Part shown: positions 18,843-64,000 of the stretch, one piece after another
Numbering within the stretch: the stretch's first letter is position 1
Layout: each line of letters begins with the position of its first letter
NCBI GenBank assembly: GCA_964016885.1
Contig: OZ024741.1
Span: forward strand, 326,616,001 to 326,680,000
Reading direction: 5' to 3'
Origin: Eledone cirrhosa
Lineage: Eukaryota
Length of the DNA stretch: 64,000 bases
The notes under the pieces: generated by a model
What the model was told of the DNA's origin: nothing
The model's input: only the letters and a program-made list of their open reading frames with translations
The model's database searches: none
Translations under genes and position numbers: made by a program

Positions 18843-18878
18843 CGTTTCTGAATTGGCAACATGACCCTCCCAAAGTAT

Positions 18879-18938
<60 letters not shown>

Positions 18939-19255: not shown

Positions 19256-19532
<277 letters not shown>

Positions 19533-19607
19533 TAGTGTAAATATTGATGCAATTCAATTCAAGCACTCAACGTACTTTTTCCACATAGGAGTGACGTAGT
19601 AAATATC

Positions 19608-20676
19608 GAATAAGGAAAAGCGAAGTAGTTTCAGATGTTCAAGTCCTTTAATAATAATGCTGTGATACATATTTCAATGATGACACTGGCCACACTGATC
19701 TGTGTGCGAGTGTCGTGTCATTATCAGACAGCTTGTTACATAATAAGGTTATGTTTCCGAGGCAATCCAAATTGAATCAACATGGGAACGGATGAAGTTC
19801 GTGCTTTTGGGTTTTTCATCCGTTCCCTTGTGAATACCAATTCACCCCCACCGGTCTGCGCAAGCGCATGTCCGAAGGAAGTTGACCATTAGCCACCGCA
19901 GATTTCAACGAAATTCGCTGTCATTTCACCCTCTCAGCCAAAACAATGGCCCACCTATGCCCTACCAAAGTTTACTGCTACCCATCACAACTGTGGCAGT
20001 CAGCCGAAAGCCAGAGGGGATGGGAGGGTGTTAGTTTTTATAGGTCATAATACTACCTTTCACTAAGCGTTGGCAGCAAGACTGACCATCAACTCATAAG
20101 GGAAAATAAACTTAATTCTAGGTACCATGGTTTTACATTTGAAGTTAAGAGTGAGAGTTGGAAATAAAAATTAAAAATTAAAATCCTGAATCAAATATCA
20201 GAGATTATAAATTAAACAATTCAAAATTCGAAATTCAAAAATGTTTCAAGTGATAATTCGGATTGAGTAAAGATATAGATTGAAGTGAGTAAATAATATG
20301 GAGAGAGATGTTTAAGTAATAAGTTATGAGAGGGATTCTAGTGTCACAGTTACTCTATCCACATATTGAACGACAGTGCCGTACATTATAACGGAGGGCA
20401 AACTACAGGGTTCAAGGCATTAACAATCTGGTACACATTCATAATTTCCATCACATGGAACAAAATCAAAGAAAAACAGACATAAAGTACACAAAAGAAA
20501 AGAAAAGAACAGAACCAATAGTGAATAAATGCAAAAACCTTATTATGTAACAAGCTGTCTGATGATGACACGACACTCGCACACAGAACAGTGTGGCCAG
20601 TGTCGTCATTGAAATATGTATCACAGCATTATTATTAAAGGACTTGAACATCTGAAACTACTTCGCTTTTCCTTAT

Positions 20677-20678
<2 letters not shown>
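19608..20678. repeat. 143-bp inverted repeats (19608-19750 / 20536-20678), each holding a hammerhead; probable truncated PLE with inverted pLTR
   Basis: Arms are reverse complements with few mismatches; right arm ends at (TC)n(TA)n. Confidence 0.9.
20554..20627 (+). ncRNA. Intact-looking type I hammerhead ribozyme
   Basis: GCTGT-CTGATGA-TGAC..GACAC...GTGTC-GTCA-TT-GAAA-TATGTA-TC-ACAGC; 5-bp stem I; predicted cleavage after C20622; mirror copy at 19659-19732 has CTGATAA. Confidence 0.8.
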
Positions 20679-23631: not shown

Positions 23632-23906
23632 GAGAGCTATAGTAAATATCACAACGCATTATATCCGACGCTATGCTAACACTACCTATCGACCAGCATA
23701 TATTACACACTGCAATATACAGAAATGACGTTAGTTTGAGGTGTGAATATTTTATAATTGGTCCAGTTATTAAGGAATGTCAACTATGTTAAACTTCATC
23801 AGAATCTTAATATTTTAATAGACAAATCACGCACAGTCAATATAAAATGTCTGAAATATTTGACAAATATCAATGGATTACTTAATACATACAACAAATA
23901 CATACA

Positions 23907-24028
23907 ATAAATGTAATCTGAGTTTTTCGAATATCAATAATAATATTCGATTCGTCTAAAGAGGCTGTTTGCATAATTACAAACACATCGAATACTATTA
24001 TTGATATTCGAAAAACTCAGATTACATT

Positions 24029-24031
<3 letters not shown>
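23907..24031. repeat. Fold-back inverted repeat (~45 bp arms; duplicate at 32185-32309)
   Basis: ATAAATGTAATCTGAGTTTTTCGAATATCAATAATA.TATTCGAT...reverse complement, ending at (TA)n. Confidence 0.9.
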
Positions 24032-31504
<7,473 letters not shown>

Positions 31505-31608
31505 ATATATATATATTGTTATACTTTGGGAGGGTCATGTTGCCAACAAATTCAGAAACGAAATATATATATATATATATATATATCAATGATATTAATA
31601 AATGGAAC

Positions 31609-31877
31609 TATATTTATAAAACCATATTTATTCTATTATATATATTACAAGGATACCAAAATTTGGTACGCTCTCATCAGATAAAATACAAAGTTTGTTA
31701 TATAAATATTTACATACCCAGGAATCAGACCTTAACGGTTCAAGAAACGTTAAGGTCTCATTCCTGGGTATGTCAAAATTTATAAAACAAACTTTGTATT
31801 TTATCTGATGAGAGCGTACCAAAGTTTTGGTATCCTTGAAATATATATAATAGAATAAATATGGTTTTATAAATATA
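31609..31877. repeat. 269-bp palindrome with a hammerhead in each arm (copy 1)
   Basis: Centre TTAACG.TT(CAAG)AAACGTTAA at ~31743; arms reverse-complementary. Confidence 0.95.
31799..31855 (+). ncRNA. Intact-looking minimal type I hammerhead ribozyme
   Basis: TTTTAT-CTGATGA-GAG..TACCAAA(GT)TTTGGTA..CTT-GAAA-TATATA-TA-ATAGAA; mirror copy at 31631-31686 has GTAA in place of GAAA. Confidence 0.75.
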
Positions 31878-32306
31878 TTATACTCCAGAAAACCTGTCGA
31901 GTGCTTTGAAACCAAACCAACAAATTAAATATCCCCTTGCTTATATATATATATATATACTACCTATCGACCAGCATATATTACACACTGCAATATACAG
32001 AAATGACGTTAGTTTGAGGTGTGAATATTTTATAATTGGTCCAGTTATTAAGGAATGTCAACTATGTTAAACTTCATCAGAATCTTAATATTTTAATAGA
32101 CAAATCACGCACAGTCAATATAAAATGTCTGAAATATTTGACAAATATCAATGGATTACTTAATACATACAACAAATACATACAATAAATGTAATCTGAG
32201 TTTTTCGAATATCAATAATAATATTCGATTCGTCTAAAGAGGCTGTTTGCATAATTACAAACACATCGAATACTATTATTGATATTCGAAAAACTCAGAT
32301 TACATT

Positions 32307-39812
<7,506 letters not shown>

Positions 39813-39918
39813 ATATATATATATTGTTATACTTTGGGAGGGTCATGTTGCCAACAAATTCAGAAACGAAATATATATATATATATATATATATATCAAT
39901 GATATTAATAAATGGAAC

Positions 39919-40187
39919 TATATTTATAAAACCATATTTATTCTATTATATATATTACAAGGATACCAAAATTTGGTACGCTCTCATCAGATAAAATACA
40001 AAGTTTGTTATATAAATATTTACATACCCAGGAATCAGACCTTAACGGTTCAAGAAACGTTAAGGTCTCATTCCTGGGTATGTCAAAATTTATAAAACAA
40101 ACTTTGTATTTTATCTGATGAGAGCGTACCAAAGTTTTGGTATCCTTGAAATATATATAATAGAATAAATATGGTTTTATAAATATA
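39919..40187. repeat. Palindrome with double hammerhead, copy 2 (intact motif at 40109-40165, plus strand)
   Basis: Duplicate of 31609-31877. Confidence 0.95.
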
Positions 40188-40958
40188 TTATACTCCAGAA
40201 AACCTGTCGAGTGCTTTGAAACCAAACCAACAAATTAAATATCCCCTTGCTTATATATATATATATATAATAAGGTATTGACAGACCAAGTATATTTATC
40301 GATGCCAAGACAGGTTGTCTCTCAGCGTACTCCATGGGCAATGTAAGATACATTCCCAGAGTATACACATAGTTATTCGCTTCAATACAACACACACGTA
40401 AAACGGGTGCTTATAATAGTTCCCGGATTCGAGGTTCTGCCGCACTAATGAAGCAGTAAGGTGCACTGCACCATCCGTCTGCATATATTATGCAAGAATG
40501 CACAATCGGCAAATGCGGCTTCATTAGCGGGTATCGCCTAATCAATAACCAATCGATCGATAGAATCCAAACCCCAGCCCATGCCGGTCATGACTGTTTG
40601 TGACAACCGCCACGGTAAAGCGACTAGCAACTGGACCCGATACAACTCTGTCCCTCGACTAGCCACCGATTTACAAATTTTACGTGGTGGCGGGAGAATA
40701 GAAAACCAATCTTTTTGTTCCCATCAAAAGGACTCATCCAACGTGTCTCACACACAAATTATTAAGAGGTGAAAGGATGGTTATTAGAAATAGCAGTCCA
40801 CATCGATGTATAATAGAATGGTAGCATTCAGCACATGTCTCCAAGTCCCCTGGTTAGAGGAAAGCGATAGTAACTATGGTAGTGCCAAGAAGCTTTAACG
40901 GATTTTAAATGAGATTATCCATTATAGAGCGATATAGTAGCGGGCTGAAATGTGTCAT

Positions 40959-42743: not shown

Positions 42744-43675
42744 TATACTTGGGAAGGGTCATATTGTTGTAATAATATTGCCAGAAATAATAACAGAACA
42801 CACTCACTGTTTGGTTGGTTTTCGCTTCTGTATCTTTTATATCCCCATAGTTAATTAATTCCGCCATCAATGTTTATCACTGATCAATGGTGAACAATAC
42901 AGATATAGATATAAATACATATTATACATTGAGTTAGAAGCTCAAAATAGTCTTTTACAATTAAATAGCTCAAAGAAGGGAATCTTTCCGAGCCGTGTAA
43001 TATATTTGGATATATGAGAGGGATGAACACAGTATACATGTGTTCCAATTGCAAATGACCTAGTTAGCTAGGTTGACAAATTACTGATTTAAAACAATAT
43101 GGTTTGCCTGACTCGATTTAAAGTAATAAATCAATAAAAATAGCAAACCTATATCGGGCAATAGCCATTCTAACCATGTTCTTTCGTTGCACATCTGCAG
43201 CATCATCAGTGGTACTATTATGTTTCCTCCTGTTGTATTGTATATCAACGCCATTTTTATTTTATCTGTTTATTTATTTATTTATTTTTGTTTTCGTCTC
43301 TGCGCATGCGTTTGCGTGTGTGTATAGTGTCTGGTGTGTGTGTGTTCGCGTTTGGGTGACTGTGTTTTGGTTATAGTATTATATCTTAATTTATTAGTGT
43401 GTGTGTTATATGTCTTTGTTGTTTTGTGCTTGTAGTATATATTTATTTATTTATATTTCTCTTAAGTCAGTATTGTTTGTTTGGATGTTGTTATTCAATT
43501 CATTTTTTCTGCTTAGTTCTGGCTTTCTAAGCTCTATTTCGCTTGCTTTTCTGATTTAACTACCTATTGGGTCATTTCTATGTTTAGATATTATTTTAAT
43601 TGCTATGTTGTCTATGTTACCGTCATGTTGTCTGGCGTGTTGTATAGTACTGAACCGTTTTTTGTCCGTTTAGTT
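42744..43675 (-). mobile_element. PLE family D pLTR/3' fragment with a hammerhead remnant (43173-43213)
   Basis: Homologous to 6807-7620; reverse complement ACCA-CTGATGA-T-GCTGCA(GATG)TGCAAC-GAAA-GAAC-A-TGGT. Confidence 0.75.
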
Positions 43676-46538
43676 GTCTTTTGCTTTTGATTATTTTGTG
43701 TGTTTCAGGGGCTTTTTTCATTCTTGGGTCTTGTTTCATTAGTGGGATGTTCTTGTGAATAGTGTTGTAAGCTTCCGCATTTCTTTGGTTGTGTGTTGAG
43801 ATATATGATAGTATATTGGATGTACCTTGAATTTGTTTCTGTTTTTGTAATTCATCAATGCCTATTGCTTTAGCCCTTTCTATTCCATTATTTATTAGTA
43901 ATGGTGGGTATTCTCTTTCGAGTAGAATTTCCTTTAATTCTTGAAGTCATTTATCTCGCATTTCATAATTGGAGACAATTGTGCAAATTCTTCTTGCATG
44001 ATCGTCTTCGTGTGCTTTGGATGGTTGGAGGTGAATAACAGGTATTGTTTGGAATCTGTTGGTTTGTAGTGTATGTCAGTTTCAATATTTGTGTCATTTT
44101 TTAAGATTAAGATGTCCAGAAATGGGAGTTGATCTTAGCAATATTTCATTGTGAATTGGATGTGGTTATTGATGCCGTTAATTAAATTTTTGAAATCATT
44201 TAGTTGGTCGAGTGTGGGAGACCAAAGAATGAGACAATCAACCAAGTAGCGTTTCCAATTCTCTGATAAATTTGCTTCTAGTCCGTATTAGTGTGCGATC
44301 GTTGTGTAGAGATTCACTACCTCGAAAGACACAATAATAGTGTAGTTCTTGACATGTCTTGAAGTGGTGGTTTAAGAGGTCCAGATCGTCTCTTACAAGG
44401 TTTGGTATGTGCTTGAGAATTGGTTTTAGTAGTATGTCTATAAAGTTGCTTAGTCTGTGTGTTTCACATTGTGGATCCGCTGCAATTGGTCTTAATTTAA
44501 GGTTTGTGGGGGTATTGTGTGTTCACGCAGGTTGAGATTGATTGTTTACAGGCATCGTTAAATATTTCACACTTGAGGATCTTCGGAAGTCCGTAAAGGT
44601 TGCTGGTTTTGTATTCAAAATGTGTCAAATAATCGCGTTCCTTTTTAATTAAGTCTTCCTGGTATCGACAAATGAATGTGTTTAATCTGGTCATCGTTTT
44701 TGATTGCTGGTAGTTTTTTTCTCTTTCATAGTAGTTAGTATTTTGTAAGAGAGAGAACATAGAATGTTTATATTGTTCAGCATCCATAATGTCCCATATT
44801 ATCTAAATAAACAATACGGACATTATAATTAAGGAAGCGGACACAACACACAACATAATCATAAGCAAAAGACAAACGAAATCACTAAAAACATTACTCA
44901 CCAATGCCAAATTACCTACCACAAACCCACAAGCAACTGTCAAAAAATGTGGTCGCTCTAATTGTGGAACCTGCACTCACCTCGTTGAAGGCAACACGTA
45001 TACATTTCAATCAGGACAAAATTTTGCTGTAAAAAATCACTTCACTTGCTCATCAAAAATTCTACTGTATGCCATTAATTGTAAAGGATGCAATGACGAT
45101 TATATAGGACAAACTAAACTCACACTCAGAAACAGAATGACAGTTCAACGCCAAAAATTACGAGATCCAACCACGAGACAGATACCACTAAGTGCACATC
45201 TAGACATATGCGCAAGTAATAAGACACCCAAATTCCAAGTCTTCCCGTTTTATCTTTGCGCTGACAATACAACAGAACAAATACGAATAAATAAGGAAAA
45301 TATGTTTATTCAAAAATATAGACCAGCATTAAATATAGTTTAATATACATTATGTCAACACCATAACATGCTAACCATCCAAACAGACACATGCACACAC
45401 ACATAACACCTTCTACTTTAGAAAATAAAAACCAGAACTAAATAAACCTTAACATACGTTAATACTCTAACACCTTAACATGCTAACCCCCCCCCCCCCC
45501 CCCTCACACACACATAACTCCCTCCCCCATTTCTACTAACGGAATCATTTTCCTACACACACGCATAAAAAAATATATGTTCTCTCCATCTTAACATGCT
45601 AACCATACTCCCACACACACATACACACACACACACACACACACATAACACCCATACACACACACATAACACCCATACACACAACTCCCTCTTCCATTTC
45701 TACTAATAGAATCATTTTCCTACACACACACACAAAATATGTATATTCTCTCCATTTTAACATGCTAACCATACTCCCACACAAACATACACACACACAT
45801 AACACACACACACAAAATATATATATATTCTGTACATCTTAACATGCTAACCATACTCCCACACACACATACACACACACACAACTCCCTCCCCCATTTC
45901 TACTAATAGAATCATCTTCCTACACACACACGCACACACACATACACACGCACACACACACACACACTCAAGCACATAAATAAACATACATATCTCTACT
46001 TTCTTTATTTCAATAGAAAGTCTGAATTCTGACACCCCAGCGCAACAGCCATATTCACTGAACCAGAACAATTCTCCCCATCCCATTTTTTTTACCATTA
46101 TCTTTTGGTACAAACAAAAGATAATTGTTTCTACTTTAGGCACAAGGCCATCAAATACCCAGTGCATTATTGGTACTTTATTTTATCCTTACGGGGTCGA
46201 TAAAATAAAGTACCAGTAATGCACTGGTTAATTGCTGGTCTTGTGCCTAAAGTAGAAACAATTATCTTTTGTTTGGTACAAAATTCTCTAAAAGGCGACA
46301 AAATATATTCCCAAATACGGGCGAGAAATTTAATGTACTTGTTCACGTGACAGTCATAATTTCATTTATAACCAATGGAATTACATTTATAAAAAAAAAG
46401 CCTTCGTGAGCCACTTTTTTTAAAGTAAAAAGAAATTCAAACACAAACTGGCGCGAAAGCCGATATGCTTATTCACGTGACTGCATCAACCAACCAAACT
46501 TCACTAATATATGAAAAAACAACCTTTGCCCCCCCCCC

Positions 46539-46569
<31 letters not shown>

Positions 46570-46885
46570 CTTTGTTTGAAGAACTTTGTAACGTGTGAAC
46601 TGGCGTGAATTTTATTATACTTATTCACCAACCTACCAAATTACTTCTCTAAAAACCTGGCATTTCGAGCCATTTTTTTATATATAAAACAGAAGTAACA
46701 TTCAAAGACCAACCAGATGTCAGAAAAACCACACACCGTCCATCTCAATTCTGCTTTTCAAAAGTAGGATTAAAAAAAAAAGACTCCAGTTGCATTTTCA
46801 ATTTCATCTTTTTTTTCTTCTACTTCCACTCGTGTAGGACACCTCGGTTATTTTTCATTTTGTAAAAAAAAACCTCACTTTCTAA
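43676..46885. mobile_element. Rearranged PLE family C copy: inverted, deleted RT part (43676-44790, minus) + GIY-YIG and pLTR (44810-46885, plus)
   Basis: ORF 44497-44787 (minus) matches 25789-26070; ORF 45137-45343 (plus) matches 27402-27608; ends CCTCACTTTCTAATA(TA)n. Confidence 0.85.
46111..46275. repeat. Palindromic SINE-tail insertion inside a PLE 3' region
   Basis: GGGGTCGATAAAATAAAGTACCAGT...CTTGTGCCTAAAGTAGAAA and its inverted copy; absent from the homologous position ~28235. Confidence 0.8.
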
Positions 46886-49110: not shown

Positions 49111-49923
<813 letters not shown>

Positions 49924-49976
49924 GTGTTTCGACACACGATTTCATATAAAAAACCTCGCAAAACTAATTCATCGCC

Positions 49977-50033
<57 letters not shown>

Positions 50034-50311: not shown

Positions 50312-50318
<7 letters not shown>

Positions 50319-50609
50319 GTGAGTTTTTTTTACAAATTGTAAAATAACCGAGGTGTCCTACACGAGTGAAAGTATAAAGAAAAAGAGATGAAATCGAAAA
50401 TGCAACTGGAGTCTTATTTTAAAAACATATATATATATCTATTTGGTTCGTTTACCGGTTTCACAGATGTGTGGAAAACCAGAGACCCTCCATCTCAACT
50501 CTACTTTTGAAAAGCAGAAGAACTGCGAAACCGGTAAAGGAACCAAATAAATATATATATTTTAAAAAAAAATAAGACTCCAGTTGCATGTTCGATTTCA
50601 TCTCTTTTT

Positions 50610-50614
<5 letters not shown>
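50312..50614. mobile_element. Solo family-C pLTR fold-back
   Basis: 50312-50466 is the inverted family-C terminus; 50464-50614 is the direct copy; (TA)n on both sides. Confidence 0.85.
50504..50539 (+). ncRNA. Intact minimal hammerhead, U3-A8 variant
   Basis: CTT-TTGAAAA-GCAG(AAGAA)CTGC-GAAA-CCGG-TA-AAG. Confidence 0.7.
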
Positions 50615-50640
<26 letters not shown>

Positions 50641-50644
<4 letters not shown>

Positions 50645-51080
50645 AAAATAAAATAAATAAGTCAAATGTTTAAAATTTAGCTTCGTTTATTACTGCTATA
50701 TATATTTCGGTAACAGCCATCTTTTGCTGTGACATCTTCAGGCAGTCCGAATTAGTGTGGTATAGACAAGTACATATGTTGTTGAGGTGCATAACCTTGT
50801 CAATACTCTAATATGCCCAGTTCCTGGTTGGGTTGTTATTTCACTGAGGAACTTGAATCATGATTCCAGGTCCTCAATGAAATAACAACCCAACCAGGAA
50901 CCCAACCAATCAGAGTATTGACAAGGTTATACACCTCAATAACATATGTACTTGTTTATACAACACTAATACAGACTGCCTGAAGACGTCACAGCCAAAG
51001 ATAGCTGTCACCAAAATATATATAGCAGTAATAAACAAAGGTAAATTTTAAACATTTGACTTATTTATTTTATTTTATTT
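50641..51080. repeat. 440-bp palindrome (centre GAATCA|TGATTC at 50860/50861) with a hammerhead in each arm
   Basis: Arms reverse-complementary apart from scattered substitutions and one ~10-nt patch. Confidence 0.95.
50692..50746 (-). ncRNA. Intact-looking minimal type I hammerhead
   Basis: Reverse complement ACTGC-CTGAAGA-T-GTCACAGC(AAAAGATG)GCTGTTAC-C-GAAA-TATATA-TA-GCAGT; plus-strand copy at 50975-51029 has CAAAA. Confidence 0.8.
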
Positions 51081-51172
51081 TACATTACTCCGGAGTTACT
51101 AAACCAACCTGCGCATTTTATCGAGTGCTCCAATCTGCATACTGAGGTGTTGTTATACAACCAACATATACT

Positions 51173-51218
<46 letters not shown>

Positions 51219-51262
51219 ATAATAATAAACGTGAATACTAACATCCACTGAGAGCTCGATAA

Positions 51263-51339
<77 letters not shown>

Positions 51340-51385
51340 TATATGGGAGGAGGTTATAGTTCACTTGAAGCATTGTGTAATGAGG

Positions 51386-51815
51386 TATAAACGTTTGTAT
51401 ATGTATAATAAAGCCAAAACAATGCAGGTATGGACATAAAATAAAGAATGCAAATGCAAAAGATATTGTTGACAATTTGTCTTTTACCTTAGATTTATTT
51501 AAATGTCCTAAATTTTCGTGATAATATCTCTTCTTCAGAGGGAATAAAGTTGTCAAACCAGTGTTCTAAAAAGCTTTCCAAGTCATGCTGACAGGAAATG
51601 GTATAGAGTATCTGTTCAGCATGACTTGGAACGCTTTTTAGAACACTGGTTTGACAACTTTATTCCCTCTGAAGTAGAGATATTATCTCGAAAATTTAGG
51701 ACATTTAAATAAATCTAAGGTAAAAGACAAATTGTCAACAATATCTTTTGCATTTGCATTCTTTATTCTATGTCCATACCTGCATTGTTTTGGCTTTATT
51801 ATACAAACGTTTATA
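51386..51815. repeat. 430-bp palindrome with a hammerhead in each arm (51507-51541 minus, 51666-51700 plus)
   Basis: Arm consensus CCT-CTGAAGA-A-GAGAT(ATT)ATCTC-GAAA-AT-TT-AGG; plus arm reads CTGAAGT. Confidence 0.9.
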
Positions 51816-53954
51816 AATATATATATATATATATATATACAGTCCAAGAGTAACCAATCTTAAAGAGAGAGATGGACATAGGAGAGGAGATATGAGAGGA
51901 GAGATTGGTGAATTAGTTAGAAGCCAAAGCGTAAAGGCATGTGCTCAATGTGCAATATATATTAGAAAGCAGCTAGGTGGCTGGATTCATGCAGAAGTTA
52001 GGTGAGCAGAGCTGGAAATATTCATTAGTTAAGCAAAACAAGACCACAAATTTGACAAGGAAGACATTATTAGAAGATTGTCAACATATTTTAGTTTGAT
52101 GTAAGGAATGTAGAGAATAATAATAATAATATTAATAATAATAATGTCCGATTACAATTGTTTCGCTACTCCATATACTATTTCTGGATGAGATGACTAT
52201 ATATCATAATTGATCTGGTTCAGTTGAAAATAATTAACATATTTAAAAAACAGAGCGCCTCATCGGAACTTCAAAGGAATATGAATTAAAATAAGGAGAG
52301 AATGTTACATAATATAATGTTCCATATATTGGTATTTCCCTATGGTGTCCTGGTTGTATCAGTTGTCAGCCATAATCAAGCAGTATTCATCTGTCGAGAC
52401 TGCATTGTGTGAGATCTGCCTATGGGTAACAAGATGGCTGCCAAAGGACATATTTACCTTACTAATTAGAGGGTAGTTTCAGGGGAAGTAACTCCTCGAG
52501 AGATTAGAAATTGTGGGTAGTTTATAGTTAAGTGGTAATTTTTAAATTTTTTAATTGAGAGACAGTGTAGGGGAGGTAACTTATAATTATCTAAGTTAGT
52601 CATAGCTATTTAACTTATTAGCTACAAGTAAAAATGGGGCTAGATGACTAAGTTGGGTCAAATATTCTATTGGCGAAGGAATTAGCCCTTCGGTGTTGAC
52701 AGCTAATAGTTACCTCCGTTCTATCGTTAATCGGTAGAGGTCGTGATAGAGTTATGTAATATGCTTCTGTAATAGAGATATCACAAGATTTTCTTCGTCC
52801 ATTGAACGATTGGGCCCTAGGCACGATATCCCATTTTAGTGAGTGTTGAACGTTGCTTAATTTAAGGTTTTTAATGAGCCTAGCTAGAGATGTCGAACAT
52901 CTGTTGCTAGGGTCTCGGAAGGAAAAAGAGTGCGCGTTATAGCGTACCTTATAAGGGTACCTGAGAGGTTTATTAAAATATAGAATTGTTAAAATATAAA
53001 TTTTTTGGAATAAGATTTCTCGCGGCGTTTTCTAACATGACAGTAGTGTGACCCTTACGCTGACTTCTTTCTTTTTTTCATCTTTCTTCCTTTATTACTT
53101 TCTTTCCCTTTTTTATTCTTTGACGGAGAGGTGGTTGTGCATTATAAGCCATCGCCTCCTCACCAGATGGTCATTAGTAGACTGAGTTGCCATCACTTTT
53201 AGGGCAACTGGCCGAGGTGAAGGCGGCTAGTTGGTCAGTCGTCCTCTCTGTCTCTGATTTTTCGGACCCATGGTCTTTTACATATTCCTTTATTATATTT
53301 CGAATACCTGATGATATCACTGGATTCATATGGAACCCGGTCATTGAAATGATCATAGTATAATAAACCTTTCAGTGATTTACACCAGTCCAGCCTCCTG
53401 TTATTTTATTTATAATTAACTCCGTATTCGCACCACCAACTACACAAACGAAGACGGGTGAACTGCACTACGTTGAGTACTCTCCACAATGTTACACCAA
53501 GATTGACCATACGGAATGACCAATTCTATCAAGTGGTGAACCAACAAACCTATATATATAGAGAGAGAAATAGATAGGAAGTTTTCCTCGCAACCACAGC
53601 CACATTGAAATGCAACACGAGACGATAAATCTGGAACTGCTCGAGAGAAGATCCTTTTTATGAACAGAAAGGCTTAATTGTATCAGAGTGAACAATTTAG
53701 ATTCAAATTGGAAACGGCTTTATACAGAAGGAAGAGAAAACGTGTAATAATTTGACAAAGATGAAAACAAAAAACATCAATGTGAAATAATCTGCCGAAA
53801 AATACATGAAATTAAGTCTGAACATATACATAACCGAAATTCTACAATGTTGATATATACATACCCGTTGAACATGCAGACATGTAAACACACACATACA
53901 CACACACACACACACGCACGCACGCACACAAATACACACATAAACAAACACGCA

Positions 53955-54028: not shown

Positions 54029-57000
54029 TTTGAGTCAAAGTCATTGATATTATTTAACTGGAAAGTTTGTTGAAATGAATATGAAGCCGCTACCTGCAGC
54101 CTCACATATTCAGGACGTATCGGAGGGTTCTTGCTGTGAAGTGTTCCAAAAAGCGGGGCTGGACTAATCTTCTTTAACCATCCTTGGAAACTCTTTGAGA
54201 TAGTACCTAGTGCGCCTATGACAAGCGGGACGACCTTGACTTCATGGCAGTTCCAAATCCTTTTTACCCCCCACTTTAAGTCCTGGTATCGGATAATTTT
54301 CTCCCTTTCCTTTTCTTGCACTCTCGTGTCAAATGGGCAGGCCACATCTACAATCAGGCACTATCTTTTTCCTTTTCCAAAACCACCAGGTCAGGCCTAT
54401 TGTGTTCCAGTTTCTTATACGTCTGTATCCTAAAATCCCATAGCACCTTCACCTGATCGTTTTATATCACCGACTCTGGCTTATGCTCATACACTTCTCA
54501 GAATGTGGTAAATTGTTTACTTTGCATAGGTGCCAGTAGATTACCATACCCATCACATCATGTCTCCTGCCTTTATAGTGAGTCTGGGCTAGGTGTTGAC
54601 ACTCGGATACAATGTGAGCCACAGTCTCTTCTCTCTCTATCCACAAATCCTACACAGTGGGCTAGCCTCCTCCTTGTAAATATGGTGTTTCAGCCATTTC
54701 GTTTTGAGGACCTGCTCTTGCGCATCCATTAGCATTCCTTTTGTAGCCTTTTTAAGGTCTCCTCTTTTTAACCAGTTCCATGTCTGTGGATCTCTAAATT
54801 CAGTTTCTTAAAGAAGGTGCCATGAAGGGATTTTTCATGAAAGTTGCTCTTCCTCCTTGTTGTTATTTCCTATCTGGACATCTACTGTCTTCTCCTTCAG
54901 TAAAATTTTGAGTGCTGGCTCCCTACTGTCAGTCACGTATTTGTGCAGATTGTTTTTCTCCATCTGAACACAGTCCTCTATGCTGATAAGACCTCTCCCA
55001 CGTTTAGATCTCATGTGGAACATGTTGTAGATAGTCAATAGCTTCCTAGTCTTCCTATCCATTTCTTTTTGTTCAGCAACATTCCATTTCAGAATTCCCG
55101 CATTGTATCTAACAATAAAAACAGCTCAGGAATTCATGGCACTTATAACATTCCTACCATTTAGATGTGATTTTAATACGCTCCTTACTCTCCTAATGTA
55201 CTCAGATCTTATCAATTCCTTAATATTGTGTACTTGATGTCAAAACACCTTAATATTTGTATCCTTCTTCAGTGTCAATTTCCTTTATCATCTCACCTGT
55301 TGGTACCTGGATTCCGTTGCTTCTGCTCAATTTACCCCTCTTCATCACTCGTACTCCACACTTATTAACACCAAATTCCATACATAAATCATTGCTGAAA
55401 ATACGGACAGTGTCAACTAGTACATCCAAATCCTTCTCACTCTTCCCAAAGAGTTTAAGATCGTCCATGAAGAGGAGGTGGTTGTTGGTAAGCTCTCCTT
55501 TTCCCAACTTGTATCCTGTTCTCACTTTTCGCAATATAATGGTCACGGGTATCAGGGCAAGGACAAACAACAGAGGGGACAAACTATCTCCCTGGAAGAT
55601 ACCTCTCTTGATCTTCACGTCTCCCAAGGATTATCCACCCGATGTTAACTCTGTTTCCCAGGACTTCATACTTTTGCTCAACAACTGTCTGATGTTACCT
55701 ACCACCTTGAAGATCTCTAGGCTTTTGGTGATCCAAGAATGAGGTACCATGTCGAATGCCTTTTTGTAATCTATCCATCCCATGGCTAGACCAGTGTGTC
55801 TGCTCTTGCAATTCCTCATTACCATCTTATCAATAAGTAACTGGTCCTTTGTACCACGGGACTTCTTTCGGCATCCTTTCTGTTCGTCCGGTAACAAGTT
55901 GTTTGTGTGGAGGTGATGGTAGATTTCCTCAGACATAATGCTTGTCAACAGTTTCCACATTACGGACAGACATGTGATAGGTCTATAGTTGGTAACATCA
56001 TTACCCTTGATTCGGTCTTTCATTATCAGAACTGTGGTACCTTTTGTCAACCACTCTGGTACCTCACCTGACATCAAGCAGTCATTGAACATGGTTGTCA
56101 GTTTCGGGTGGAGGGATGTTATATTTTTAATCCAATAACCCTGCACACTATCTGGGCCTGGTAATTTCCAGCTGGTTAGTTTTTTGGCCTGCTCTTTAAG
56201 AATATCAACTATCATACTCAAATCAGTTTGTTGGTGTGCTTGTTCACTAATCTCCTTTCGTACTGTCTCAATCCACACTGCCTGGTCATTATGTTCAACA
56301 TCCTGCTCCCATATTCCTCTCCAGAATGTCTTAGTCTGTTCCGCCTCAGGGAACAAGACGTTGCCTCATCCTTTTCCTTCAAGCTGTCCACAAAACATCT
56401 TCTGGTTGTTGTCAAACATGCGGTTCTGTCTATACTGACTGACTCTTCTCGAATACCGCCTAATCTTTGCACTTCTTGCTACAATGGGGATCACTTTGAC
56501 TTCATGGCAGTTCCAAATCCTTTTTAACTCCAAGTTTAAGTCCTGGTATCTGTTAATTTTCTCCCCCTCCTTCTCTTGCACTCTCGTGTCGAATGGGCAG
56601 GCCACATCCACAATCAGGCACGATCTTTTTTCTTTGTCCACAACCACCAGGTCAGGTCTATTGTGTTCCAGTTTCTTGTCCGTCTGTATCCTAAAATCCC
56701 ACAGCACCTTCACCTGATCGTTTTCTATCACCGCCTCTGGCTTATGCTCATACCACTTCTCAGAATGTGGTAAATTGTTCACTTTGCATAGGTGCCAGTG
56801 GATCACCCTGCCCATCACATCATGTCTCCAGCCCTTATAGTGAGTCTGGGCTAGGTGTTTACACTAGGATACAATGTGAGCCACAGTCTCCTCTCTCTCA
56901 CCACAGATCCTGCACAGTGGGCTAGCCTCCTCCTTGTAAATATGGTGTTTCAACCACTTCGTTTTGAGGGCCTGCTCCTGTGCAGCCATTAACATTCCTT

Positions 57001-59040
57001 CTGTAGCCTTTTTAAGGTCTCCTCTTTTCAACCAGTTCCATGTCTGTGGATCTCTAAATTCAGTTTTCTCAAAGAAGGTACTATGAAGGGATTTTTCCTG
57101 AAGGCTGCTCTTTCTCCTTGATGTTATTTCCTCCTTGGACATCCTTGGCCTATTGTCACCTCCTTCAGTACAGTTCTGAGCATTGGCTCTTTACTATCAG
57201 TCACGTATTTGTGTAGGCTGTTTTTCTCCATCTGAACACAGTCCTCTATGCTGATATCACCTCTTCCACCCTCAGATCTCCGTAAGTAGAGTCTATCGAC
57301 ATCACTCCTATTGTGGAACATGTTGTAGATAGTCAATAGCTTCCTAGTCTTCCTATCCATTTCTTTCTGTTCAGCAACATTCCATCTCAGAATTCCCGCA
57401 CTGTACCTAATAATAGACACAGCTCGGGAATTTACTGCACTTATGGCATTCCTACTGTTCAGATGTGACTTTAATAGGCTCCTTACTCTCCGAATATATT
57501 CAGTTCTTATCAATTCCTTCATTTTTTTGTTCTTTATGTCATCAGCGTCCAGAACGCCCAAATACTTGTATCTTTCTTCAGAGTCAATTTACTTTATCAT
57601 CTCACCCATTGGTACCTGGATTCCGTTACTTCTGCTCAACTTACCCCTCTTCTTCACAATGACTCCACACTTACTAATACCAAATTGCATACATATATCA
57701 TTGGTGAAAATACGGACAGTGTCAAAAAGTACATCAAACTCCTTCTCACTCTTCCCGAAGAGCTTAAGATCGTCCATGAAGAGGAGATGATTGATGGTAA
57801 GCCCTCCCTTTCCCAACCTGTATCCTGCTCTCACTTTTCGCAGTACACTGGTCAGGGGCATCAGGACAAGGACAAACAACAGAGGGGACAGACTATCTCC
57901 CTGGAAGATACCTCTTGATCTTCACGCTTCCCAAGGATACTCCAGTTGATGTTAACTCTGTTTCCCAGGACTTCATACTTTTGCCCAACAACTGTCTGAT
58001 GTTATCTGCCACCTTGAAGATCTCCAGGCTTTTGGTGATCCAAGAATGAGGCACCATGTCAAATGACTATTTGTAGTCTATCCATCCCATGGCAAGACCA
58101 GTGTTTCTCCTCTTGCAATTCCTCATTACCATCTTATCAATAAGTAACTGGTCCTTTGTACGACGTGACTTCTTTCGGCATCCTTTCTGTTCGTTCGGTA
58201 ACAAGTTGTTTGTGTGGAGGTGATGGTAGATTTCCTCAGACATAATGCTTGTCAACAATTTCCACATTACGGACAGACATGTGATAGGTATATAGTTGGT
58301 AACATTATTACCCTTGATTCGGTCTTTCACTATCAGAACTGTGGTACCTTTTGTCAACCACTATGGTACCTCACCTGACATCAAGCAGTCGTTGAACATG
58401 GTTGTCAGTTTCGGGTGGAGGGATGTTATATTTTTAATCCAATGCCCCTGCACACCATCTGGGCCTGGTGATTTCCAGTTGGTTACTTTTTTGGCCTGCC
58501 CCTTAAGAGTTTCAACTGTGATACTCAAATCAATTTGTTGGTGTGCCTGTTCACTAATCTCCTTCTGTACTGTCTCAATCCACACTGCCTGGTCATTATG
58601 TTTAACATACTGCTCCCATATTCCTCTCCAGAATGTTTTAGTTTGTTCCGCCTTAGGGATCAAATCGTTGCCTCTTTCTTTCCCTTCAAGCTGTCCAAAC
58701 AGCATCTTCTGGTTGTTGTCGAACATGCGGTTCTGTCTATACTGGCTGACTCTGTTCTCGTATCGCCTGATTTTTGCACTCTTTGCTACAATGCGTTGCT
58801 TCAGTTCCTCTATGATAATATTTAGCTTTTTCCTCCTAGTTTTGTACTTTATTTCCAGTCTATTTTTAGTGTCTATCTTTTTTAGTGTCCCATTCAGTAG
58901 GGACTCAAGCTTTCCAATGTCATTTATCTTTTCCCTGATTTGACCACTCAGTCGTTTCTTCCACCAAGGCTCTGCTCTTTCTTGTCTGTTGTTTCCTCTC
59001 GCTTTTATACCAAGTAGTTTCCTCACCGTATTTGCTGTTG
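54027..59040 (-). mobile_element. R4/Dong-clade non-LTR retrotransposon (RT + zinc knuckle + restriction-like endonuclease), two fused partial copies
   Basis: [86 protein letters not shown]; flanked by (TTA)n at 53992-54026 and 59042-59112, the known Dong target repeat. Confidence 0.85.
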
Positions 59041-59041
59041 C

Positions 59042-59328: not shown

Positions 59329-61447
59329 ATGGCTACGAAAAAGAATTTTCATAGGTCACTCCCACTCATTCCGTCTTCTTCTTCCTCAATCGTCACTACA
59401 GCAGAGAGAAGATTGTCTCTCTACCTCCCTTCTTTAAATGTGTCTCTCTCCCTCCCTCCTCTTTCGCAAGCGACGACAGAAAAGAAAAGTCTCGCGCAAA
59501 GCGTGCAAGATCTCCACGACGACGACGACAACGACGAAACAGGTGTGCGGGAAATACGAAAACCCATTTCATTCGTCTGACGTCAGGAATAATAGCAGTA
59601 GCAGCCGTAATAACAACAGCAACAGTGACAATGAAAAAAAAAGTAGCAGCCGCAACAGCATCAGCAGCAGCATAAACAACAACAGCATTAGCAGCAGCAA
59701 CACCAACAACAACCACAGCAACAGCGGCGGCGGCAGTAGTCGTAGTACCTGCAGCAACAACAAAAGTAACAGCAGCTCTGACGACAACAACAACAACAGC
59801 AGCAAAGAAAAACCAATCTCGTTTGCAGGTATCGCGAAGAACCTGGAAACAATCCTCATAACAAATGAGGAATTATAGGAAGCGAAGAAGATGGTGACAA
59901 AAGGTGGACACCGAGCAATCTGCAAGGCAGCGGAAACATTTTTCGAAACCCAACAGCACTGTACGGTCACGTACCGTACAGTAAGTACAAAATCCCGTAG
60001 GGTTGAAAGAGCCACAGAGGCTCAAATACAAAAAGCCTTGGGGTCTGTGTGGCAGCGGAAAACGCACATCACCCGAGGCAAAAAAAAATATGCCACCGTA
60101 GACGTACTTTTTGCCACACCCCAGGAGGCAAAGGTTCAATCCGTAGTGACCTTAAGGAGCGAGGAAATGGTGTTGGTGCCCTCCTACTGCGGGCAAAAAA
60201 TTGTGAGGGTCAAACTGACACACGTCCCCACCGGGATGGCTCCTTCTTGGCTGGCCGCGTCTTTCCTCGTCGGAATCGAGGACAAAACAACTCTACTGCA
60301 AGTACAGAAAAAAGTAAGAGAAGATTGGGTCGGCACCTCCATTGAGATGTTAATCCAAACCAACCAGGAGTGCATCGAAGCTATCCCGGATGTGATAGAG
60401 TGATAGACTTCGATAACGGCACTCAACTGCCCATAAGTGTTGAGGGCAAACGCCCGAAATGCTTTCGCTGTGGATCAAAGACTTACCTCAGTGCCTTCTG
60501 CAACGGGAAGACCCCGAGAAAGGAGAAAACCCCCCTCCTTCCGAAACCGGCTCCACGGCTACCAGCAACAGGACAAGCGGCAACCAGGAACGATAGGTCC
60601 GTGGCACCCATACCCACGCCACGGAAATCAAAAACAGCAGCAGCAGTGGAAATATTAACAACAACAACAGCAATACCAAATGCAGCTGCAACAGAGATTC
60701 CAGTGCAAACATCACCAACAACAACAAGTGAAATAGTGGAGCTGGTACCCCTCCCCGAACTCACAGAATCAGACATGGAGTGTGAGGTGGGAGAGGGATG
60801 GAAAAAGGTCGTAAGAAGGCACAAACGCAGAAGCAGCGCATCGTCGCCTTTGTAAAGGGAGGAAAGAAATGAAAAAAAGGGTAAAGTCTACTGCAAATAG
60901 ACTCACAGCAGCAACACCGCCAACACCATCACCACCCACACTAGCACCACCATCACCACCGGCGACAACCCCACCGCCAGCAACAACAACACCTTCAACA
61001 CCACCACCACTAGCACCAACATCGCAAACACAACAACAAAACACACACACCCAGCAAAAACGACAAGAAAATAGCAGAACCACACCGCACCCCCAGAAAA
61101 ACAAATGCACGGCAATAAATACACACAACAAGAAACTAATGACTTACATAATTGAACACACAGACATTTCGCAACACGACTGCATAATACCAGCACCAAT
61201 CAAAACGCCAACTAACATAAGACTGCTAAAAATAGCACAAAAACAATACACAAACATTAAAACGAAATTCCCCAACGCAGTTGGTGATTTCAGGGACCTA
61301 GGAGGAACTATCAACCGAAGAGTATATTCGGACATACTCATAGAAGAGCCGACGACCAGCCGAAGGGACGATTCAACGGTCCCTTCACCAGACGATCAAG
61401 TGAAAAGGGATGTAAAAACCATCCCTCCTCTACGAAAAGTACGGTAA
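59329..61447 (+). pseudogene. Tx1-like ORF1 with low-complexity tracts and a degenerate zinc knuckle
   Basis: EGKRPKCFRCGSKTYLSAFC; several stops and frameshifts. Confidence 0.7.
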
Positions 61448-61482
61448 GTGGTCTTTCCCATCTTTTCCACTCTATTTTAAAC

Positions 61483-64000
61483 ATGACCTCACTCAGAATA
61501 GGCAGCATAAATGCGCGTGGCTTGGGGTCGTCATGTTAGCAGGGTCACCTGCTCAACGACCTCAGGTCACTAAACATAGATGTAGTGGCCATCAGCGAGA
61601 CCAGAATCTCCGAAGCACGGGCCTTCGCACCGATCTTCGGCGGCTACGATGTGTACGCATCTCCCAGCCGTCCTGGATCGGAGGGAGGAGTTGCTGTGCT
61701 TTTTCGGAGAGGTTTGGATTTCGACATACGGGCCATCTTCCTGGACCCAGAAGGTAAGTTGGTGGAGACGGGCAAGCTTTCAGGCTAGTGGCCGTCTATG
61801 CCCCGACAGGAGCAGGGAGGCCTGATTTCTTCCGGCGTTTGGAGACCTTTCTTGGAACGTCCAGCTCTTTAGTGTTAGTGGGAGACTGGATCGGGATCTT
61901 AGATTCACACTGGGACTGTGTGGGATTAGCGGATAGGGGAGGAGGGTGCAAGAGCCTCACCAACCTGTTCAGGCGTTTTGAACTGTCTGAGAGGTACCGA
62001 TTGGATTTCCCGAATGTGCCAATGTGGATTTGGACAAATTGCATAGTGTTATCCAGATCATATCTAGATAGAGTATTTTGTAGGGAAATATATAGGTCTA
62101 GCATAGGCTGTCCAAAGTTCAAGATAGTCAGCTACACGGACCACAAATTCGTGATCTGTGTGCTTGACTTAGATAGGCTTCATAGACGAGGACCCGGCTA
62201 CTGGAAGCTAAACGCGTCCTTGCCAGCGCGCAAGGCCTACAGAGACCGGATTAGCGAACTAGTTAAGCAGGCGTTGACGGGGGCCATCGTCAACAACAAG
62301 TGGTGGTTTGCTCTGAAAAGAGCGATTAGAATAGAATCGATTAGGTTTAGTAAGGCTTTAGCAATAGAGAAAAATAGAGCAGAAGGAGAACTAGTTAGAA
62401 AATTAGACGAGGCGCTTAGCAAAGGCATTGCGACCGACGTGCTTGCGGCGAAATAGGCCCTTGACCAATTCTTCAATGCAAAGCACGAAGGCTGCGTTGT
62501 CAGAGCAAGGGTGCGTGCTCTCAGACACGAGGGGACGAAAGCCGTTCAATGGGCCCGAGTGGCGGAGGCGCGTCGTGGCAACAAAGCCACGATCCCACCT
62601 TTGGTGGACCACGACGGGCGCATGCTACTCGATCCCGGGCAAATGTGTGAAGCTTTTCAGCGATACTTCGATCAGTTGTTCGGGGGCAGCGGTGGGCCGG
62701 GTCGAGGGATGAACTTTAGTGTCTACCTCGACGGACTGCCGCGGCTCTCGGCCACGGAGGCGAGGTGTTGCGAAAAGCCGATAACAGCCGCTGAAGTAAG
62801 GGAGGCAATGACTGGCTGCACAAGGGGTAAATCGCCTGGTTTGGATGGTCTGCCCTATGAACTTTACGTACAGATGTCAGACTTGTTCGGAGGCCTCTTG
62901 GCGGACGTCTACTGCAACTGGCAACAGAACGGGAGAATTCCCAATTCTGTGAGCCGACGAGCGGTGGCACTGCTGAGAAAGGATCCGAACAATGGGGATA
63001 ACATAGCTAATTTCCGGTCCATAACTCTGCTAAAGACAGAGTTCAAGATTTTGGCCAAGGTGCTAGCAAAGAGGGTGGCGCTTGTCGTTGGTGGTCTGGT
63101 GGGAGAGGCGCAGACATGCGCCATTCCCGACAGATCCATACACGACAACCTCCACCTCATGCGATACATCGTAGAGAGGGTAGCTAGGGAACCTGGCACG
63201 GGTGGGTCCTTGATCAATTTAGATCAGTCGAAAGCCTTCGATAGGGTCGACCATCGTTACCTAGCGGCAGTCCTGAGGGCGGCTGGCTTTGGGCCCGTCT
63301 TCAGAGGCTGGATCGCTGCCATGCACAGCGACATCTGCTCTGTGGTGCGAGCGAACGGTCACCTGTCGGAACCGTTCAACATCATGCGCTCGGTCCGCCA
63401 AGGATGACCCCTCTCGTCCCTCTTGTACGTATTGACTCTCGATCCATTACTGCACAAACTGGAGACGGTGAGGGGCGTCCCGCGCGAACTAGGATGCGGA
63501 AGATCCGTGTCAGCATATGCGGACGATGTCACCGTAGTGGTGTCGAACGCCAAACACATCGAGGTGATCGGCACTACACTAAGAGAATACGAAGTGGTGA
63601 CAGGAGCAATGATCAACCAGGAAAAGTCAGTGGGCCTGCAGCTCGGCACCTGGAGAGGCAGGTCCATGCCGTCCAACAGCGTCGTCGGACGCTGGATAGA
63701 CGGACTGGTTACATTGCTAAGGGTCTGTGTCGGTCCGGACCTCCAGACGGACAAAAACTGGGACGAGGTGATGAGCAGGGTGGCTTCTCTCACCCAGAAA
63801 TGGGCGGAGAGGAAGCTATCCCTGAAAGGTCGAGCGGAGGTGGCTAACGCGTACATCGCGTCATCATCTGCTACCGCCTGACCGTCGTACCTTTTCCTAA
63901 GCCTCGCCTGACTGCGCTGGAGCGTTTGCTCTTTCGCTTTTTGTGGAAGGGACGCGCTCCAATGGTCAGGCGGTCCATCTGTTGTCAACACCCGCTACGT
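61483..64000 (+). pseudogene. Tx1/L1 ORF2: APE endonuclease + reverse transcriptase
   Basis: SINARG, ISET, GGVAVLF, VYAP, LVGDW, YLDR, TDH, GPGYWKLN, KSPGLDGLP, NLDQSKAFDRVDH, SVRQG, AYADD; stops and frameshifts. Confidence 0.9.

Follow-up and report, generated by a model that had tools for sequence, protein, structure and literature searches.

Introduction

At positions 50641-51815 of a 64,000-nt stretch of the Eledone cirrhosa genome (contig OZ024741.1; this whole stretch is referred to as the window), two adjacent palindromes, P50.6k and P51.4k, carry minimal hammerhead ribozyme motifs on both strands, which raises the question of whether such fold-back units are templates of viroid-like RNAs, mobile elements in their own right, or remains of a known kind of retroelement. 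An initial annotation had described them as a recurring ambisense class reminiscent of viroid-like RNAs, had related them to the hammerheads located in the pseudo-long terminal repeats (pseudo-LTRs) of Penelope-like elements (PLEs), and had considered either abortive PLE insertions or independent non-autonomous elements. Our results indicate that each palindrome is very probably a single, heavily 5'-truncated PLE insertion, in which two 3' ends stand head to head and face (TA)n. The PLE link and the option of abortive insertions are both supported, as two neighbouring inverted pairs, P50.3k and P49.4k, derive from families bearing open reading frames (ORFs) in the window, and as the tails and (TA)n borders follow PLE anatomy.

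Various published observations describe the corresponding pattern. PLE insertions may include an inverted 5'-truncated copy, with a tail of 30-40 bp at one end (PMC8557442), and inverted pseudo-LTRs and short 3' extensions are routine features in PLE curation (PMC8969392). In rotifer Penelopes, palindromes occur at head-to-head junctions, for which self-priming was proposed (PMC3846280). Dual minimal hammerheads lying about 100-700 bp apart on opposite strands were reported in Schistosoma in 2014 and probably relate to truncated PLEs, in a paper that also describes the U3-A8 variant of the hammerhead core (PMC4209133). Further, a PLE protein acting on AT-rich DNA in vitro cleaves each of the two strands and extends it, its reverse transcriptase (RT) starts at two sites bounding the tail, and ribozyme cleavage is dispensable for insertion (PMC11167929). 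This kind of palindrome is already known, and the octopus families studied here may be uncatalogued; among the titles and abstract openings listed from a literature collection with few subscription papers, none described PLE palindromes free of ORFs, whether as a class or from cephalopods.

Results

Two unrelated palindromes bordered by (TA)n

The arms of P50.6k (50641-50860 and 50861-51080) are 89% identical (blastn E 3e-165) and meet with a spacer of 0 nt, and those of P51.4k (51386-51594 and 51612-51815) match in 199 of 210 alignment columns (95%) around a 17-nt spacer. The two palindromes are real and, as annotated, unrelated to each other: by blastn (E<=0.05, word 7), neither matched the other or any other part of the window. 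Their description as ORF-less was upheld as well: neither the 12 frames of both palindromes with their tails nor the 6 of 19533-20677 gave a Pfam match, and an open frame of 161 aa (51080-51565), for which no match was obtained, was taken as a chance occurrence. The annotated limits are correct for the palindromes, but the elements extend further on one side (51081-51174 and 51345-51385, respectively); for the boundary of the P50.6k tail, the window holds no second copy that could confirm it. The minus-strand hammerhead of P50.6k displays a stem I of 5 bp, an irregular stem II and a self-complementary stem III of 8 nt, and that of P51.4k combines an intact core with a stem I of only 3 bp and a single stem II mismatch. 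No parent element was found in the window for P50.6k, P51.4k, P6.2k, P19.6k or P31.6k (Table 1), and consequently the PLE origin of P50.6k and P51.4k is read from their anatomy.

Nine short elements share one design

Self-alignment of the window, with duplicates removed, yielded nine short elements of the same design, four of them beyond the initial list (613-812, 19004-19262, 49411-49980 and 50312-50616). Inverted pairs lacking the hammerhead and tail anatomy (8707, 8868, 23910 and 46104), ORF-bearing inversions (9586 and 43657) and segmental duplicates (32188 and 39919) were left out of this count. The claimed recurrence at 6.2, 19.6 and 31.6 kb holds for the design, but the supposed second copy at 39919-40187 is letter-identical to 31609-31877 and lies within an 8.3-kb duplication. 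Similarly, the term "almost spacer-free" suits five of the nine elements (spacers of 0, 0, 1, 1, 2, 17, 56, 313 and 785 nt) but not 19608-20678, where 143-bp arms enclose 785 bp.

Comparison with full copies harbouring RT and GIY-YIG endonuclease assigned P50.3k, which adjoins P50.6k on the left, to family B, being 90-91% identical to the family B 3' end at 28599-28808. The assignment of P49.4k to family C (73-79% identity) is weaker, as the family C coding fragment is matched by PLE homologues at 7594-7770 by tblastn and has no Pfam match in three minus-strand frames. P6.2k belongs to a further family (D), represented by a solo arm with a different truncation at 5514-5632.

The orientation of the arms was set by the strand of the ribozyme in ORF-bearing copies. 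In families A, B and C, as well as in a related locus from elsewhere (L001), hammerhead cores lie on the ORF strand and 3' of the ORF, so that "outward" means that the 3' ends point out and the truncated 5' ends are joined at the centre; the short elements are thus inverted, 5'-truncated, head-to-head copies. The related locus came from a search of genome contigs, whose first scan returned none and whose second returned two (L001 and L002); in L001, the ORF is followed on its own strand, at a distance of about 150 nt, by a clear hammerhead, and an inverted repeat is present at neither locus. Both (L001:1199-3697 and L002:1-1659) are animal-type PLE ORFs on short contigs of bacterial assemblies, probably representing animal (host) DNA that contaminates them. 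Families A and B (10854, 15361 and 50507) and a remnant at 18629 share a U3-A8 core and an identical 6-nt palindromic stem III, unlike L001, which has a C3-G8 core.

Table 1. Coordinates of the palindromic elements, their parts and the PLE families of the window.
Feature	Position	Strand	Remarks
(TA)n target	50613-50640	.	flush (gap 0 nt) with P50.6k short end; left limit approximate
P50.6k left arm	50641-50860	-	probable 5'-truncated PLE 3' end; short, untailed end
P50.6k hammerhead, minimal type I	50692-50746	-	core intact, C3 50741, H17 50697
P50.6k right arm	50861-51080	+	hammerhead 50980-51024, G12A at 51013, CpG context
P50.6k one-sided extension, 94 nt	51081-51174	+	putative PLE tail, flank possibly included; runs into (TA)n
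(TA)n separating P50.6k and P51.4k	51175-51344	.	broken by unique ~49 nt (~51216-51264)
P51.4k one-sided extension, 41 nt	51345-51385	-	putative tail
P51.4k left arm	51386-51594	-	hammerhead C3 51538 to H17 51510
P51.4k head-to-head junction spacer, 17 nt	51595-51611	.	
P51.4k right arm	51612-51815	+	short end 1 nt from (TA)n
P51.4k hammerhead	51669-51697	+	A9U (51675), 5-bp stem II
P50.3k, family B pseudo-LTR inverted pair	50312-50616	.	64-nt tail on left arm, 56-nt spacer, short end on right arm; 3-nt microhomology where the arms join
P50.3k right-arm hammerhead, U3-A8	50507-50536		
P49.4k, family C inverted pair	49411-49980	.	98-bp left arm (short end), 313-nt spacer with hammerhead core 49677, right arm with tail
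P6.2k palindrome	6241-6661	.	1-nt spacer, arms ~98%, right tail
P19.6k	19533-20678	.	left tail, 143-bp arms, 785-bp spacer
P31.6k palindrome	31609-31942	.	2-nt spacer, right tail; plus-strand hammerhead 31805-31849 intact
P31.6k copy	39919-40251	.	within 8.3-kb tandem duplication; no independent insertion
P19.1k palindrome	19004-19262	.	0-nt spacer, arms 89%, left tail; heavily decayed hammerhead remnant by eye
P615 palindrome	613-812	.	1-nt spacer, right tail; only 3' half of hammerhead-like motif visible, tentative
PLE family A	9586-17634	+	inverted 517-bp arm, partial tandem, decayed RT and GIY-YIG coding stretches
PLE family A hammerheads, U3-A8 core	10854, 15361		coding strand
PLE family B	24055-28808	+	ends in (TA)n; P50.3k derives from this family
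PLE family B, duplicate	32333-37116		
PLE family B, diverged copy (B')	43657-46884		inverted 5' part
PLE family C	6807-8200	-	C-terminal endonuclease-like coding fragment, 3' region, hammerhead core 7139, (TA)n interruption; parent of P49.4k

One tailed and one short end, in microsatellite targets

In all nine short elements, a one-sided extension of 40-94 nt continues beyond the palindrome, and its boundaries are confirmed by other copies in three families. The opposite end lies within 1 nt of a (TA)>=4 tract in six elements, reaches it via a (TC)n run in two, and is followed by 22 unique nt in one (P31.6k), in agreement with an AT-rich, microsatellite target; by comparison, 1.2% of random positions fall within 5 nt of a (TA)n tract and 15% within 100 nt. 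Counting independent copies and not segmental duplicates, the short end was observed four times and the tailed end twice in family C, the tailed end three times and the short end once in family B, and the tailed end twice and the short end once in family D. Independent copies of these families stop at either of two fixed points, of which one includes the tail and the other lacks it, and both kinds of end are present in each palindrome.

These ends bear on the possibility that host repair, by cruciform breakage and fold-back at fragile (TA)n, doubled single PLE ends already present. Inverted duplications do arise at breaks made by retrotransposons (10.1101/2024.12.14.628481), and the window contains four that lack hammerheads (8707-8872, 8868-9051, 23910-24028 and 46104-46283), two of them centred on (TA)n; yet the hammerhead-bearing elements have (TA)n at their outer ends and not at the centre, and the duplicated arm stops at the family-specific short end seen in independent copies, which makes this origin quite improbable. 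A sequencing or assembly fold-back artefact is scarcely credible: the region is repeat-rich and the near-identical 8.3-kb tandem duplication may be an assembly effect, but the arms diverge by 2-11%, indels and CpG-type substitutions being among the differences, and the one-sided tails match independent family copies. The argument from arm mismatches, raised at the outset, is therefore sound.

The hammerhead motifs are above chance, outward and decaying

A relaxed descriptor gave seven matches with scores of at least 8 in the window, as compared with a mean of 0.25 (maximum 1) in 20 dinucleotide shuffles of 500-nt blocks, and all motifs in palindromes read outward, as had been annotated. The strict descriptor recovered only the motif at 31805 and its duplicate, and looser descriptors were needed for the rest; a second looser scan, run without a shuffle control, includes four rows that are probably due to chance (41904, 62031, 51556 and 51651). 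Rfam returned no hammerhead-family match (E<=1 for the whole window, E<=10 for 50600-51850), hence the ribozyme call relies on our descriptor and on the published description of minimal hammerheads; the Rfam matches to microRNA (miRNA) and other families were all below gathering score and mostly fell on hairpins and (TA)n. When 11 single motifs were folded locally, their z-scores were mostly weak (+0.5 to -3.1), and folding energy thus offers no support for the hammerheads. In a MAFFT alignment of 16 motifs, the GAAA box was misplaced.

Among the five elements listed initially, one arm with a conserved core (C3-G8 or U3-A8), GAAA and stems I and II is intact in four, and none has both cores intact. 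The claim of a hammerhead in both polarities is accordingly correct as to motifs, which are mirrored in both arms, but not as to two intact cores. Positions A9, G12, A13 and A15.1 of the hammerhead are invariant by the usual numbering; apart from the changes of P50.6k and P51.4k, the minus arm of P31.6k has A13U, that of P19.6k has G8A (its plus core being intact by eye, though listed by neither relaxed scan), and P6.2k, the element with no intact core, has C at A15.1 in both arms. In total, the 11 invariant core positions of these five elements contain four arm differences, where arm divergence would predict about 2.4, therefore no sign of selection on the cores after insertion is seen.

A self-complementary stem III that would permit dimers was recovered in the descriptor scans. 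For P50.6k, a trans-dimer via stem III is predicted at -28.4 kcal/mol versus -21.4 for two monomers, and the predicted dimers (cofold) of P31.6k and P51.4k pair elsewhere than in stem III. Minimal hammerheads display low activity in vitro and need dimers (PMC4209133), and the published activity of PLE hammerheads is low or protein-assisted (PMC4209133; PMC11167929).

Solo motifs and ends are also present in the window. An intact hammerhead at 53308 (plus strand) stands back to back with an endonuclease-like C-terminal frame on the minus strand (together 52648-53420), which at 52648-53031 gave no Pfam match and no longer homologue at E<=1e-5, and a decayed hammerhead lies at 8358. Very short solo element ends occur between (TA)n tracts at 18858-18882, 31517-31541 and 51216-51264; the first two, of 25 bp, carry the family C short end, and no copy of the third, of 49 nt, was found among the places checked in the window.

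Transcripts are predicted to bury the ribozyme

The expectation that a transcript of a whole palindrome would fold as a long rod was confirmed by prediction (approximately -290 to -330 kcal/mol). Within the rod, the probability that the core is unpaired is 0.00-0.17, versus 0.21-0.72 for single arms, and opening the core and forming stem I would cost 54-80 kcal/mol. Each strand holds one sense ribozyme, the second polarity being its mirror copy, and therefore no unit-length RNA can be excised. Furthermore, no head-to-tail hammerhead array was detected (tandem repeats of score >=80 and window self-alignment), whereas non-LTR retrozymes are recognized by two or more units that follow one another head to tail, each with a complete hammerhead (10.64898/2026.07.22.740005).

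Viroid-like RNAs fold as rods, carry ribozymes in both polarities and have circular or multimeric units. The suggestion that the palindromes are integrated copies of, or templates for, such an ambisense circular RNA draws on the rod fold and on the motif present on both strands. We regard it as exceedingly unlikely, because a single sense ribozyme per strand cannot release unit-length RNA, the core is buried at the energetic cost given above, the motifs mirror each other exactly, occupy equivalent positions, are decaying and are never both intact, there is no tandem from which multimers could yield circular RNA, and the tail and (TA)n anatomy is that of PLEs. The ribozyme is mirrored because the arm that contains it is mirrored, which gives no indication of a viroid-like RNA; the viroid-like class proposed initially is not sustained.

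PLE families of the window

The window has a base composition of approximately 30-41% GC over most of its length, with abundant (TA)n and (CA)n. Decayed elements with RT and GIY-YIG endonuclease occupy 10.0-17.6, 25.3-27.6, 33.6-35.9 and 43.7-45.3 kb; a further fragment, at 7.6-7.8 kb, is endonuclease-like but weaker. A search with the RT at 15661-16866 gave 681 relatives at E<=1e-20, and the named ones of best identity are proteins of Octopus sinensis and O. bimaculoides (59-70%), with bivalves at 45-59%. In families A and B a cysteine motif sits between RT and endonuclease, and both are Neptune-like by the description in PMC8557442 rather than by a tree; the ORF-bearing copy of family A has an inverted-arm spacer of 519 nt. 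According to a hand-drawn, approximate list with nested repeats included, PLE-derived intervals cover about 29 of the 64 kb; in the O. vulgaris genome, PLEs constitute 6.83% and 190 families (PMC13282606 supplement).

Arm divergence and the joining of two ends

The arms of P49.4k are identical at 95 of 98 positions, versus 75 of 82 and 78 of 85 to other copies, and those of P6.2k at 103 of 104, versus 77 of 87; since in both cases the arms are closer to each other than to other copies, they come from one source. Microhomology of 3-4 nt is present at the junctions of P50.3k and family A.

Six points weigh against a single truncated PLE insertion as the origin of each palindrome. The arms of P50.3k are no closer to each other (81/93) than to a family B copy (81/90); tails of 60-94 nt exceed the published 30-40 bp, the 64-nt tail of family B being confirmed by independent copies; target-site duplications are unreadable inside (TA)n; for P50.6k and P51.4k, the window contains neither a parent element nor a second copy; the assignment of P615 and P19.1k was made by eye; and five of nine spacers measure 0-2 nt, which has a probability of 1e-6 to 3e-5 under an assumed uniform, independent truncation of the arms. 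From this last point it follows that the truncation of the two arms is often coupled, and that a coupling step is needed. This step could be hairpin fold-back, or else run-off at a fixed 5' end; neither is established, because mismatches at the centre are not enriched and the 5' limits of families B, C and D differ.

Fold-back corresponds to self-priming, in which a cDNA or antisense template would fold at a short hairpin and be copied back to give the second arm. This is compatible with a single truncated PLE insertion for the zero-spacer cases, and we consider it a genuine, though lesser, possibility. The near-zero spacers and the proposal made for rotifer Penelopes (PMC3846280) speak for it, as does a templated fold-back patch at the inverted family B' junction (44792-44844), discerned by eye. 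On the other hand, mismatches within the inner 10 pairs numbered 6 versus 3.7 expected (P=0.17), which is not a significant enrichment, second arms stop exactly at the conserved short end of their family, and it is the more truncated arm of P50.3k that bears the tail, an arrangement that pure fold-back would not yield and that favours priming at both target ends. The patch itself is a short segment copied from the opposite strand of nearby element sequence, and its arrangement suggests template switching.

Alternatively, the centre could be fixed: the RT would start internally, close to the transcript 5' end, both cDNAs would run off at the transcription start of the pseudo-LTR, akin to a strong-stop product, and they would be joined end to end, so that centres would recur within a family even if the palindrome itself did not move. 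Such a route, likewise compatible with a truncated PLE insertion and refining it, appears rather unlikely. Internal RT initiation has been shown (PMC11167929), PLE transcription begins in the pseudo-LTR (PMC8557442), arms of 58-220 nt plus the tail equal a pseudo-LTR in size, and five spacers of 0-2 nt would be accounted for; against this, the family D solo arm begins about 85 nt nearer the end than P6.2k, all copies of families B and C in the window differ in their 5' limit, and the centre of P615 seems, tentatively, to fall inside the ribozyme. In P615 (613-733), the centre is at the expected stem II, with outward GAAA, stem III and cleavage triplet present and the 5' core missing by eye, as if fold-back had taken place inside the ribozyme.

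Palindromes as mobile units

As a remaining alternative, PLE enzymes might copy entire palindromes, which would then be non-autonomous elements and a retroelement counterpart of miniature inverted-repeat transposable elements (MITEs). The design is uniform across unrelated families and both ends carry cis signals for priming; in addition, PLE proteins are able to act in trans (PMC3846280) and retrozymes have been proposed as non-autonomous PLE derivatives (10.64898/2026.07.22.740005). Nevertheless, none of the nine elements recurs independently as a palindrome in the 64 kb, the sole repeat being segmental, and the recurring families do so as solo arms with other limits, so the window lends no support to the annotated option of elements in their own right and we judge it unlikely. 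Recurring centres would not discriminate here, because a fixed 5' end of the template RNA also gives them with no mobile palindrome involved.

A copied hairpin edited by ADAR might give the skew of P50.6k transitions towards G.U pairs on the minus strand (12:3, P=0.035 uncorrected), yet this is one of nine tests, the pooled skew is 25:13 (P=0.07), six of the 15 transitions are in CpG context, and G12A, for which alone a direction of change can be given, corresponds on the minus strand to C-to-T of the CpG type and not to A-to-G. An ADAR imprint in the arm mismatches was consequently rejected, being a single nominal skew that is not robust. A bolder proposal, that some octopod pairs are re-copied as whole units and form a palindromic retro-MITE class, with the centre fixed at the transcript 5' end, about nine per 64 kb, and supplying much of the near-perfect double-stranded RNA (dsRNA) behind hyper-editing, seems to us improbable.

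Other inverted repeats and neighbouring features

Overlapping inverted duplications at 8707-8872 and 8868-9051, centred on (TA)n, have 51-bp arms of 96-98% identity and no hammerheads, and might have arisen by successive fold-back events at (TA)n. In the second, what is mirrored is the junction between flank and end of a small element (~9022-9395), the ends of which are similar to 5707-5740. A palindrome with an 11-nt spacer (46104-46283) lies inside a family B pseudo-LTR, with about 20 nt of target duplicated in inverted orientation. Its inner part presumably resembles the 3' end of an octopus short interspersed element (SINE); if it derives from a SINE, head-to-head insertion would extend beyond PLE RNAs. 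At 23898-24041 (duplicate near 32188-32306), inverted 55-bp arms with a 35-nt spacer abut (TA)n upstream of a family B element, with no hammerhead seen.

The 8.3-kb tandem duplication (23682-31941 and 31960-40251) is 99.3% identical over its first 5.2 kb and 99.9% over its last 3 kb, and may be a recent event or a haplotype or assembly effect. Broken transposase-like ORFs at 28905-31505 (duplicate from 37213), with ends resembling the 9022-9395 element and no Pfam match in the two stretches tested, probably belong to a TA-targeting DNA transposon. A helicase-like fragment at 1904-3258 is Helitron-like by eye, with no Pfam match. Two RT elements with RVT_1 matches lie at 54221-59041 (tandem, minus strand, RTE-like by eye) and 59879-63881 (with upstream ORFs, L1/Tx1-like by eye). 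At ~5985-6090, tRNA-like A and B boxes probably mark a SINE head, by eye and with no Rfam match.

Discussion

We propose that an autonomous PLE supplies the GIY-YIG endonuclease, which would cleave the AT-rich target on both strands, as a different PLE does in vitro, and that the RT would prime from both cut ends at two alternative start sites bounding the tail, leaving one arm tailed and the other not. Two short cDNAs would then stop and their 3' ends would be joined by microhomology or fold-back, so that the pseudo-LTR 3' ends, each with its minimal hammerhead, would face outward into (TA)n. The ribozyme would be a passenger, acting, if at all, on the PLE sense RNA as a dimer, and after insertion both copies would decay neutrally. 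Read-through RNA would form a long duplex, blocking the ribozyme and offering a substrate for ADAR or Dicer. The density of palindromes would result from the PLE-rich octopod genome and from repeated targeting of the same (TA)n clusters.

As a class of elements, these palindromes carry little weight, their structure being the published signature of PLE insertion. Their value would lie elsewhere: the mechanism generating PLE inverted repeats was called an open question (PMC8557442) and has been partly answered in vitro (PMC11167929), and ORF-free junctions, of which an octopus genome would hold thousands, could tell twin priming from fold-back, and both from run-off at a fixed 5' end, by spacer length and tail side. 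Furthermore, octopus has an exceptionally high fraction of loci forming long near-perfect dsRNA, with strong hyper-editing, and the editing of dsRNA in frog is partly explained by a palindromic repeat, no such repeat being named for octopus in the available part of that paper (PMC5625713); palindromes of the kind studied here may feed octopus dsRNA editing. They also mimic miRNA precursors and MITEs, as in the sub-threshold Rfam matches, and could give false matches to "ambisense ribozymes".

Among known systems, the closest are endonuclease-bearing (EN+) PLEs with inverted pseudo-LTRs (PMC8557442; PMC3846280; PMC8969392), which share head-to-head 5'-truncated copies, a one-ended tail, (TA)n or AT-rich targets, junction microhomology and a hammerhead in the pseudo-LTR; compared with these descriptions, the present copies are too short for any ORF, tails reach 40-94 nt instead of 30-40 bp, and spacers of 0-2 nt prevail in five of nine elements. 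The minimal type I hammerheads of metazoan PLEs (PMC4209133) likewise have a short stem I, a self-complementary stem III, the U3-A8 variant found here in families A and B, and an extra base before stem II, as in several of our motifs, although several stems II here lack a clean G10.1-C11.1 pair. The opposite-strand pairs about 100-700 bp apart compare with core-to-core distances of about 85-240 bp in our short-spacer elements; in the accessible text of that paper they take up one sentence, on Schistosoma, with neither arms nor centres described.

The Poseidon element of Anolis, as characterized in vitro (PMC11167929), resembles our elements in its two alternative 3' ends bounding the tail, its AT-rich targets and the extension of both strands, with a ribozyme that is dispensable for insertion; families A and B differ from it in the cysteine motif between RT and endonuclease and in a ribozyme located upstream of the ORF start. 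Non-LTR retrozymes (PMC7229834; 10.64898/2026.07.22.740005) are also non-coding, of 170-400-nt scale, PLE-related and furnished with a type I hammerhead, but they form head-to-tail tandems whose same-strand ribozymes release circular RNAs, whereas our elements are head to head with one sense ribozyme per strand.

Viroid-like RNAs have in common with the palindromes the rod fold and a motif on both strands, and differ in that the latter have no circular or multimeric unit and contain mirror-duplicate motifs with decaying cores. Finally, the palindromic Harbinger repeat of Xenopus, an ADAR target (PMC5625713), is similarly a self-folding repeat of a few hundred bases that gives dsRNA with no partner copy; it is, however, a DNA-transposon family with a palindromic consensus, while in Eledone cirrhosa a retroelement would make the palindrome at insertion.

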